In this document: positions 37,008 to 37,871 of the stretch, piece after piece
How positions within the stretch are numbered: the stretch's first letter is position 1
How the letters are laid out: every line of letters begins with the position of its first letter
Source: Candidatus Wolfebacteria bacterium
GTDB taxonomy: Bacteria; Patescibacteriota; Minisyncoccia; UBA6257; UBA9933
Direction of reading: 5' to 3'
Assembly (NCBI GenBank): GCA_024654025.1
Contig: JANLIR010000003.1
Span: forward strand, 1,658 to 65,657
DNA: 64,000 nucleotides
Notes under the pieces: generated by a model
Databases searched by the model: none
The model's input: the letters and a program-made list of their open reading frames with translations, nothing else
What the model was told of the DNA's origin: nothing
Position numbers and translations under genes: made by a program

Positions 37008-37646
37008 ATGAAGATTTTTTTCGACAGATTGGATAATAAAGGAGTTTCGCTTATTGAGCTGATGGTGGCGGTTTCGGTTTTTATTGTTTTAATCAGCATC
37101 GCGGTCGGTTCTTTTGTGCAATCAATGAAGACCCAAAGAATCACGCTTGCTCTAATTTCTGCCAATGACAGTATGAATTTATCAGTTGAGCAAATGGCAA
37201 GGGAAATAAGGACCGGCTATATTTTTTGCACGCGACATGTTGGCGCCGCGACTACTACTGATTTGGGTTGCGGAAATTTAGCGGATTTTTCCGGTGACTA
37301 CGAAGTTCAATTTGTAAATGCCAACGGAATTTTTGTCAGATACCGGCTGAATAACAGCACCTTCGCTTTGGAAAAAGGCGTTTTTGATTCAATTTGTCTT
37401 GGCGGGTTATTAAATTCCGACGGATTTTGTTATAGACCCATTACTGCCGACAATGTTAAGGTTGCTGGGTTTGTAGTGGAGCTTAGGCATGCGGATACAG
37501 AGCCGAATCCTTATTCGCCCCGAGTTACTTTAATAATGAGCGTTACAAGCAAAGAACCGGATGTCGAGCCGCTAAATATTTTTACTGATATAGAAACGAG
37601 CATCAGTCCGAGATGCGGACAAAATGGATGCCCGTCGGATATATAA
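37008..37646 (+). CDS. Minor pilin/pseudopilin
   Basis: ...NKG|VSLIELMVAVSVFIVLISIAVGSF. Confidence 0.7.
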   Translation: MKIFFDRLDNKGVSLIELMVAVSVFIVLISIAVGSFVQSMKTQRITLALISANDSMNLSVEQMAREIRTGYIFCTRHVGAATTTDLGCGNLADFSGDYEVQFVNANGIFVRYRLNNSTFALEKGVFDSICLGGLLNSDGFCYRPITADNVKVAGFVVELRHADTEPNPYSPRVTLIMSVTSKEPDVEPLNIFTDIETSISPRCGQNGCPSDI

Positions 37647-37871
37647 GGGCTTTGTCTAAATTTTGGAGTTATCTAAACGAACAAAATTTAGAAACAAAAC
37701 CTTACCCCGCACCTTTTGGTGCAAAGATTATGCAAATACAAAACATAAAGACGAAGTCGCCTGCGGCTCAAATTAGATGTAATATAAAGTCTGTGCTGCA
37801 AAAGGTGCGGGGTGCTCATAATTGTAGTGAAATTTTATTCGCTACTAATGAGCTCTAAAATTTTAACAATT
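37644..37871 (+). mobile_element. Miniature (gene-less) member of a TIR element family: TAAGGGCTTTGTCT left flank, 14-bp IR ACCCCGCACCTTTT/AAAAGGTGCGGGGT, right flank homologous to the GIY-YIG element at 52153-52505
   Basis: left flank, IR core and about 35 bp of right flank (gcggggtNctcaNNattgtagtNaaattttNNtcgctac) are shared with 52153-52505; begins at the TAA stop of the preceding gene. Confidence 0.6.

Follow-up and report, generated by a model that had tools for sequence, protein, structure and literature searches.

Genomes of the Candidate Phyla Radiation (CPR, or Patescibacteria) are tiny and streamlined, with tightly packed operons. Why, then, should a segment of 234 bases without an open reading frame (ORF) of its own fill the whole interval from the stop codon of one gene to the start-codon region of the next? 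Such a segment, site A, lies at positions 37644-37877 (+ strand) of a 64,000-nucleotide stretch of DNA from Candidatus Wolfebacteria bacterium (contig JANLIR010000003.1), which we call the window. It follows a pseudopilin gene of a pilus locus (ORF 37008-37646, with an N_methyl pilin motif); next come a 124-aa gene and the L3/L4 ribosomal operon. The answer we favour, with belief and doubt in about equal measure, is that cistron junctions across the CPR are occupied by a family of selfish elements, palindromic and mosaic in build, and that site A is one of its non-autonomous copies, without an ORF.

The element begins exactly at the pseudopilin TAA (37644-37646, + strand), as a preliminary description of the locus had stated; these are its first three bases, and they are paired. 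The 3' end given there, 37871, falls short. In the last helix, 37813-37825 pairs with 37865-37877, and so site A includes ATGGCA (37872-37877, + strand), the first two codons of the downstream gene. Two mechanical ORF calls cross the element, 37613-37858 (81 aa) and 37812-38246 (144 aa, from GTG); the true downstream start is the ATG at 37872.

Folded as RNA or as DNA, on either strand, 37644-37877 forms three hairpins, P1, P2 and P3, that abut directly with no linker at all. The fold z-scores are -7.6 for RNA and -7.1 for DNA on the + strand, and -6.4 for DNA on the - strand. Hairpin P1/P1a (37644-37704, + strand) is defined by folds, by covariation and by a covariance-model score of 85.5 bits. 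Its conserved foot is UAAGG-G-CUUUGU / ACAAAA-CCUUA, in which the UAA stop pairs with CCUUA; above the foot come a variable upper stem (CUAAAUUUUG / CAAAAUUUAG), an internal loop (GA/GAA) and a tip (GUU/AAC). A K-turn in P1a was considered and ruled out: it would need tandem G.A pairs after a 3-nt bulge, and the internal loop is 2 x 3 (GA/GAA). The central arm, hairpin P2 (37705-37812, + strand), has a G+C-rich foot (CCCCGC/GCGGGG) prolonged by ACCUUUUGG / (C)CAAAAGGU. This foot is the 14-bp inverted repeat reported earlier, ACCCCGCACCTTTT / AAAAGGTGCGGGGT, which we find at 37704-37717 and 37800-37813 with the 82 nt between its arms. The interior (37718-37799, + strand) is indeed non-coding and holds no GIY-YIG reading frame; it is not unrelated DNA, however, since it is a conserved ‘class-2’ arm (centre GACGAAGTCGCCTGCGGCTC) that is 79-89% identical in other copies. 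Hairpin P3 (37813-37877, + strand) has the foot UGC(U)CAUAAUUGU / ACAAUUAUGGCA and an A+U-rich upper part (UGAAAUUUUA / UAAAAUUUU); its 3' strand, ACAAUUAUGGCA, holds the AUG of the next gene. Our first reading of this 3' arm was a hairpin P4 (GUAG..CUAC) with a pseudoknot, its loop pairing downstream. Given the minimum-free-energy folds and the mirror relation to P1a, a single nested long hairpin is the simpler modelled fit. Thus the sequences once taken for passive flanks, or element ends beside a payload, are predicted to be two self-folding hairpins with covarying stems.

A sister copy, site B (52153-52506, + strand), lies between greA (TAA at 52153-52155) and a class-I lysS (ATG at 52506). 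That the two sites belong to one family had been proposed from their common flanks, and the proposal holds. On the left, TAAGGGCTTTGTCT and AACAAAACCTTACCCCGC are identical at the two sites, at 37644 and 37693 in site A and at 52153 and 52185 in site B. The latter is an 18-mer found nowhere else in the window; about 0.12 chance matches are expected, and two were reached in none of 100 shuffles. The right modules, described as the same, are similar and not identical (32 of 39 positions, compared position by position), and the P3 hairpins are ~71% identical. Both sites have the G+C-rich inverted repeat ACCCCGC/GCGGGGT. In addition to the site A type of P1 foot, site B has a short G+C-rich P1a, and its P2 is filled by a 72-codon GIY-YIG frame (52208-52426, + strand; PF01541, E 3.6e-8) surrounded by the inverted repeat ACCCCGCCCTCT / AGAGGGCGGGGT. 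The earlier claim of a nuclease gene here stands as far as the frame goes; an in-frame TGA at 52274-52276 interrupts it, and the frame is therefore probably a pseudogene, with a product 83% identical to intact 72-aa proteins. Recoding of this TGA was ruled out, as TGA ends 8 of 58 long ORFs and the genome thus uses it as a stop. The left-module covariance model found no third copy in the window.

To see the family more widely, representative genomes and metagenomes were scanned with the exact 18-mer; the resulting sample of copies is therefore biased toward that exact P1/P2 junction. The genome scan returned 24 loci (retrieved loci are given below by L-numbers where they need to be told apart). 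Thirteen are in CPR groups (Saccharibacteria, Paceibacterota, Sungbacteria, Azambacteria, Wolfebacteria, Magasanikbacteria and Minisyncoccia), and all 13 have the same architecture; the other 11 are chance matches within coding sequence. Metagenomes gave ~30 further copies that share the architecture; all told, the 18-mer led to about 45 copies beyond the two of the window. Carriage by phages was also considered; the sole IMG/VR match to the 18-mer is a chance match in G+C-rich coding sequence. A covariance model of the left arm finds further diverged copies, three of them within 4.3 kb of L049. Elements in CPR genomes measure 150-450 nt, most lack a GIY-YIG gene, and the P2 foot is present in every family member examined.

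The fit to the gene junction seen at site A extends to the family. Of 36 distinct copies, 31 begin with a TAA (in one copy, TAG) that is the in-frame stop of a long upstream ORF, so that the placement on a stop codon noted for the two window copies proves general. The start of the downstream ORF lies in the last P3 strand or immediately behind it (...TTGGC-ATG or ATGGCA) in nearly all copies. The feet of P1, P2 and P3 converge on one junction, with the stop opening P1 and the start in or directly after the last strand of P3, and each hairpin consists of a foot of conserved sequence and an upper part that changes fast and is always self-complementary. The downstream genes are functionally unrelated; they include rplF, rplK, rplC, rpsH, gatC, map, and genes for a HIT protein, pilins and an ABC permease. 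Many copies sit within ribosomal-protein operons (S8-L6, nusG-L11 and S10-L3 junctions), including the S10-spc cluster. Rfam 15 gave no match at gathering thresholds for the window and 12 loci, and at permissive E-values both sites and two minimal copies gave chance-level microRNA and sRNA matches alone. Full-text literature searches found no description of the present three-hairpin family of CPR bacteria, which is apparently undescribed so far. On sequence evidence, we would class it as a family of palindromic intergenic repeats with a nested, putative homing-type nuclease, absent from Rfam and the searchable literature.

The nuclease can be followed independently of the DNA motif. With the repaired site B protein as query, a search returned 132 protein clusters, nearly all of 71-74 aa; taxon names, where the sources give any, are all CPR groups. 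The closest solved structures are UPF0213 proteins, and the resemblance is weak (1zg2, E 2.7e-5). We examined nine distinct genes of the 72-aa GIY-YIG family. All lie at a gene junction, inside P2, between ACCCCGC... and ...GCGGGGT, and so the proposed tie between this repeat family and GIY-YIG genes is borne out. Five of the nine (L071, L073, L087, L088 and L089) were taken from the protein search, which is blind to the DNA motif. Each of these five is placed between an upstream stop and a downstream ATG and is wrapped by ACCCCGCCC(T/C)CT ... AG(A/G)GGGCGGGGT, a stem common to all the contexts examined; the AUG and UAG of the GIY-YIG gene face each other in the P2 stem, and the outer hairpins range from typical to much reduced. 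Gene-bearing partner copies are site B, L033, L063, L071 and L087. The only protein predicted from the elements is this single-domain GIY-YIG nuclease of 71-74 aa, whose gene fills P2. GIY-YIG proteins are not known as transposases.

Elements come and go between close relatives. The pilin junction is filled in the window and empty in L081-L084. The preliminary description had asked whether pilus loci of relatives lack the segment; those with pseudopilins 91% and 84% identical do, and have plain A+T-rich spacers of 103 and 46 nt, respectively. The empty form in L083 reads ...GATATA TAA [46 nt] ATGAATAAAAAAAATCAAAAAGG, and the filled form in the window reads ...GATATA TAA [element] ATGGCA AAAAATCAAAAAGG, with the start region ATGGCAAAAAATCAAAAAGG. 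Presence and absence among close relatives at this junction imply that the element is gained and lost. The event is not simple insertion after a stop codon, as had been supposed: relative to the empty relatives, the element takes the place of the whole spacer plus the first two or three downstream codons, and no duplicated target bases were seen in the two filled/empty pairs compared (the pilin and L14-L24 junctions). At L14-L24, the window is the empty partner (TAA AAAAT ATG AAT ATT AAG); the junction is filled in L076 (GreA 95% identical), where the P3 strand contributes ATGAAAATTCGCA. At greA-lysS, the window and L076-L079 have the scaffold, and L080 has a spacer of 26 nt only (TGA CCT TAAGGGCCCAATTTATAAAAAAT ATG), apparently what a deletion left behind. 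Related genomes thus offer both a filled and an empty state at three junctions, and a normal A+T-rich spacer is what the element displaces.

Two observations concern the same greA-lysS neighbourhood. In L077, at 10783, rplY (L25) and not lysS comes after the scaffold on the greA side, and the switch lies exactly after ...TTGGCATG (compare L076 at 10783). This is a rearrangement breakpoint at the 3' end of the element and suggests recombination between two copies. In L076 (10500-10650; also in L077-L079), a nested insertion of ~150 nt bounded by TCCCGC...GCGGGA lies in the P1 3' strand of the greA-lysS element, with ACAAAAC before it and CTTACCC after it; an element can therefore in its turn be a target for insertion of a further hairpin.

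What P2 contains varies between copies. Of the 40 copies classified (L071, automatically labelled ‘other’, was counted among the gene-bearing copies), four have a minimal P2 of 6-21 nt, four have a GIY-YIG gene, 10 have an ORF-less class-1 arm (start CCTCTA(T/A)GC, end ..TAGAGG), 10 including site A have a class-2 arm (ACC(T/A)NTT...) and 12 have other contents. Some central hairpins have a 6-nt loop only, so the scaffold exists without any insert. The termini of ORF-less class-1 arms are those of the gene cassette. Whatever their sequence class, ORF-less arms cluster at 83-100 nt, a tighter spread than a 230-nt cassette would be expected to leave if it decayed at random. The pattern has the look of a constraint on length, for which simple gene decay does not account.

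The site A arm is 89% identical to that of the L076 L14-L24 copy, 84% to that of L053 and 79% to that of L078. Outside P2, sites A and L076 L14-L24 are much less alike (P1 55% and P3 65% identical). The greA-lysS scaffold has three different P2 contents in genomes with GreA 95% identical: a GIY-YIG pseudogene in the window, a 96-nt class-2 arm in L078 and a 42-nt arm in L076, L077 and L079. Conversely, L001 and L013, from one genome, have near-identical P2 arms and different outer arms, and the same holds for L031/L039 and L067/L070. The three arms therefore reassort between copies.

The site A interior does not derive from a gene of the site B type, and descent of site A from a gene-bearing copy is accordingly not shown. 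A second GIY-YIG subfamily was also considered as its source; there is no convincing homology past a stem of ~7 bp and the word TGCAAAT, and the idea remains a lead. Genes of this subfamily (86 aa in L071, 4360-4620, within the region 4330-4650; also L003, 3790-4065) sit in G+C-rich inverted repeats that start with CCCC and have no outer hairpins (CCCCACACCTTT/AAAGGTGTAGGGG and CCCCGTTAGAGAAA/TTTCTCTAACGGGG). The stem CCCCACACCTTT/AAAGGTGTAGGGG resembles the P2 extension of site A.

We also ask which molecule folds. The helices covary. In the P1 upper stem, both members change in all 13 pairs, and pairing holds in 95.7% of cells; the covariation score was reached by none of 500 shuffles, and sliding the partner strand drops pairing to 30-57%. 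In P3, both sides change in 9 of 12 pairs and the score was again reached by none of 500 shuffles; its 3' anchor was picked partly by pairing, which inflates the paired fraction, and coincides with the conserved TGGCA and start codon. The P1 foot was fixed by the search pattern, but copies found by other routes have a compensated change there (L071: AAGCUUGU/ACAAGCU), and the P2 foot in L076-L079 has a compensated change to ACCCAGC/GCTGGGT.

The pairs themselves do not point to sense-strand RNA. An excess of G.U pairs, the signature looked for, is not seen in the covarying helices, which have 9 G.U pairs versus 12 A.C mismatches. Over 24 copies, which are not independent, folding is more stable for the antisense than for the sense strand (-80.4 versus -74.4 kcal/mol, Wilcoxon p 5e-4), and the antisense strand has more G.U pairs (127 versus 82). 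Much of this advantage comes from one conserved C.A mismatch in P1, whose antisense counterpart is G.U; for site A alone, the + strand folds slightly better. Read as its reverse complement, the right arm also scores against the left-arm model (E 2e-4 and 2e-3), with part of the score due to the trivial complementarity of P2. These data are not the signature of a structure selected solely in mRNA, and a role for RNA remains compatible with them. They fit palindromic DNA that folds as a single strand of either sense or as a cruciform, or hairpins whose perfection template switching maintains.

If site A is a selfish copy, the family could work as follows. The nuclease made by the few gene-bearing copies would nick or cut the P2 region of other copies, and repair off another copy (homing, or gene conversion) would spread and shuffle P2 arms and occasionally whole elements. 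Copies without an ORF, such as site A, would rely on nuclease supplied in trans. The host could tolerate them because the element, which would be transcribed as part of the operon, has a stop codon 5' and a start codon 3', and because its 3' arm is A+U-rich in a genome that appears not to use Shine-Dalgarno sites. Among the long + strand genes of the window, a Shine-Dalgarno-like motif lies upstream of only 4 of 55, and leaders are A+T-rich; the organism thus appears to lack Shine-Dalgarno-led initiation, so a start at the A+U-rich P3 foot without such a site is normal here.

Several points weigh against this account. Nuclease activity, a cleavage site and transposition are all putative. With neither a target-site duplication nor a transposase, the arrival of whole elements at new junctions is unexplained. 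A DNA-binding domain is missing from the 72-aa protein, and no role in homing is proven for the UPF0213 proteins, its nearest relatives. As the GIY-YIG copy in the window is a pseudogene, this stretch offers no source of nuclease in trans. ORF-less P2 arms of 83-100 nt and near-invariant feet across CPR phyla look like constraint on a working structure and not like junk decay, and a function at the RNA level would equally account for the strict co-orientation with genes and for the exact fit from stop to start. Finally, template switching can produce paired changes in short inverted repeats, and covariation is therefore silent on which molecule folds.

Some of these points lead directly to the main alternative, one that we consider unlikely and take seriously: a cis-acting RNA of the host, an intercistronic platform for expression or processing, whose hairpins join stop and start for translational coupling, re-initiation or processing of the RNase III type, and whose dispensable loop GIY-YIG genes invade opportunistically. 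The strict sense orientation, the stop in the P1 foot and the start in the P3 foot speak for it, together with feet conserved across CPR phyla, uniform P2-arm length, the conserved GA/GAA loop in P1a, the many copies in ribosomal-protein operons and the scarcity of Shine-Dalgarno sites (4 of 55 genes). Against it, the same junction is filled or empty in close relatives with nothing else changed, and the genes downstream have no functional relation. The arms, moreover, reassort as mobile modules do, no sense-strand G.U excess is seen, the antisense strand folds equally well or better, and the conserved P1 mismatch turns into G.U on that strand only. These strand results, with compensation that is Watson-Crick only, would also fit a substrate for single-stranded-DNA recombination (like REP/REPIN-RAYT systems or integron attC sites) that is moved by an unlinked tyrosine or HUH enzyme, the GIY-YIG gene being a passenger. 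A substrate of this kind would also suit units that are palindromic, with bulged bases and conserved feet, that are assembled in mosaics as BIMEs are and that keep one orientation. We nevertheless regard this as improbable, because no gene for a tyrosine or HUH enzyme lies beside any copy in the gene tables of the retrieved loci (whole genomes were not searched), because the feet by inspection have neither the GTAG/CGTC tag nor RYYYAAC/GTTRRRY core sites, and because the GIY-YIG gene alone is found inside elements.

A nuclease gene in the loop of a conserved fold also recalls group I introns, and CPR bacteria are rich in rRNA introns (PMC11270868). Strongly conserved helix feet would likewise suit a self-cleaving or self-splicing RNA that leaves the polycistronic mRNA, with the nuclease gene in a peripheral loop. 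But searches with ribozyme and intron models gave no match, not even with minimal copies and permissive thresholds; hardly any unpaired nucleotide is conserved in the core, which is only three stacked hairpins; a splice at the conserved ends would lose the stop codon or fuse the genes; and the strand comparison is not in favour of sense RNA. We think this very unlikely. We give still less credence to a generic module of terminator plus promoter that recurs at junctions. Stable hairpins straight after a stop, and A+T-rich sequence ahead of the next start, are what such a module would look like; however, no hairpin has a trailing U-tract, a scan of 37400-38100 found no intrinsic terminator or sigma-70 promoter site on the + strand (the gene strand), and termination would be harmful in the ribosomal-protein operons where many copies sit. 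The preliminary description had named the generic-module idea as what would refute its own, and that refutation fails: the flanks never occur without the inverted repeat, and in 64 kb only two junctions carry them.

How do these elements compare with known systems? REP, BIME and REPIN sequences are the nearest in organization. As in those, the units are short, multicopy and palindromic, form mosaics with conserved feet, and lie in transcribed spacers between genes of operons, and a few master copies flank or contain an enzyme gene while most copies are non-autonomous. The differences are that REP-type sequences belong to proteobacteria and to RAYT transposases of the Y1/HUH type, whereas the gene here is for a 72-aa GIY-YIG nuclease and the hosts are CPR bacteria; that the present family has three abutting palindromes (~60, 20-110 and 65 nt) running exactly from stop to start; and that its feet have no GTAG/CGTC tag. 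No RAYT gene is present in the gene tables of the retrieved loci, whole genomes not having been searched. Miniature inverted-repeat transposable elements (MITEs) of operons (Correia/NEMIS of Neisseria, ERIC/IRU, RUP and BOX) are also non-autonomous, co-transcribed and able to form long hairpins, vary by strain and can contribute expression signals. Unlike them, our family has no target-site duplication, no partner with a known transposase and no freedom of orientation relative to the genes, and it replaces the spacer and first codons where MITEs insert in a TA site. As for the terminal inverted repeats of MITEs, the 14-bp inverted repeat of site A is internal (the P2 foot), and the match of the left-arm model to the right arm read in reverse complement, in part a product of P2, may or may not reflect inverted ends.

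Homing genes of group I introns and free-standing GIY-YIG genes (I-TevI, T4 Seg) are similar in that the gene sits in the loop of a fold or between genes, in that versions with and without the gene exist, and in their signs of co-conversion and degenerate gene copies. Here, however, there is no intron ribozyme core, the fold is three plain hairpins at a cistron junction, and the protein is a catalytic domain only, with 72 aa versus 245 aa for I-TevI. Within the same host clade, CPR rRNA genes have insertions with genes for GIY-YIG or intervening-sequence (IVS) proteins; those with GIY-YIG genes are neither group I nor group II introns and lie mostly at stem-loops, at their tops or bases (PMC11270868). 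They differ from our family in lying within rRNA genes and not between protein genes with outer hairpins of their own. Integron attC sites, too, are imperfect palindromes of variable length between co-oriented genes, with conserved ends and a variable centre; the upstream stop is often inside the site, and it is the bottom strand that folds. In contrast, the present elements have no R''/R' core sites, integrase or cassette array and are found in core operons. By inspection, attC core sites are not in the family, the ends being TAAGGGCTTTGT and ...TTGGCA, and the neighbours of the inspected copies are core genes (pilus, ribosomal proteins, greA and lysS).

Other sequences also fill junctions in these genomes. 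A second palindromic intercistronic repeat of ~150 nt occurs in the window at 43181-43330, 44257-44404 and 46963-47110, in copies 70-90% identical that occupy the L29-S17, L24-L5 and S5-L15 junctions of the ribosomal-protein operon. It is a single long hairpin (ATGCCCAGTATTACAACTTCGA ... TCGAAGTTGTAATACTGGGTATG) with the start codon in its 3' foot, and that foot is similar to the main family's P3. The L29-S17 and L24-L5 junctions are 3-4 nt only in L076, a close relative. L080 (1179-7150; GreA 88% identical) has junctions of ~50-117 nt at L29-S17, S17-L14, L24-L5, S14-S8, S8-L6, L6-L18 and L15-secY, and their counterparts in the window and L076 are mostly of a few nt; L080 may thus have other junction fillers. 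Fusions with PF13366 (GxxExxY) or PF05635 (the four-helix-bundle ‘23S rRNA IVS protein’) are annotated for some homologues of the pseudopilin (P0250, P0274, P0275, P0306 and P0316). From these annotations, other small selfish ORFs of rRNA intervening sequences may directly follow pilin genes in other genomes.

A bolder proposal, which we put forward tentatively and ourselves rather doubt, is that these are a new class of mobile element. Its sole gene, nested in the central part of a three-hairpin scaffold, would encode a GIY-YIG nuclease of 72 aa that consists of the catalytic domain alone. The DNA-binding domain that this protein lacks would be replaced by the scaffold, folded as DNA or RNA, which would also define the target (structure-guided homing). 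The ends would be portable stop and start codons, by which the element replaces cistron junctions, even in ribosomal-protein operons, across CPR phyla.

For the annotation of CPR genomes, the elements matter in any case. They are mis-called as small ORFs, displace predicted starts and mark rearrangement breakpoints (as in L077), and automatic gene calls are distorted by them, for example at site A. If the elements are selfish, they show how a parasite that itself supplies both a stop and a start codon can live in essential operons. Should they be moved by the minimal GIY-YIG protein, that protein is a candidate structure-specific nuclease of only 72 residues. And if the fold instead serves the host, it would be a general device for intercistronic expression in bacteria without Shine-Dalgarno sites.

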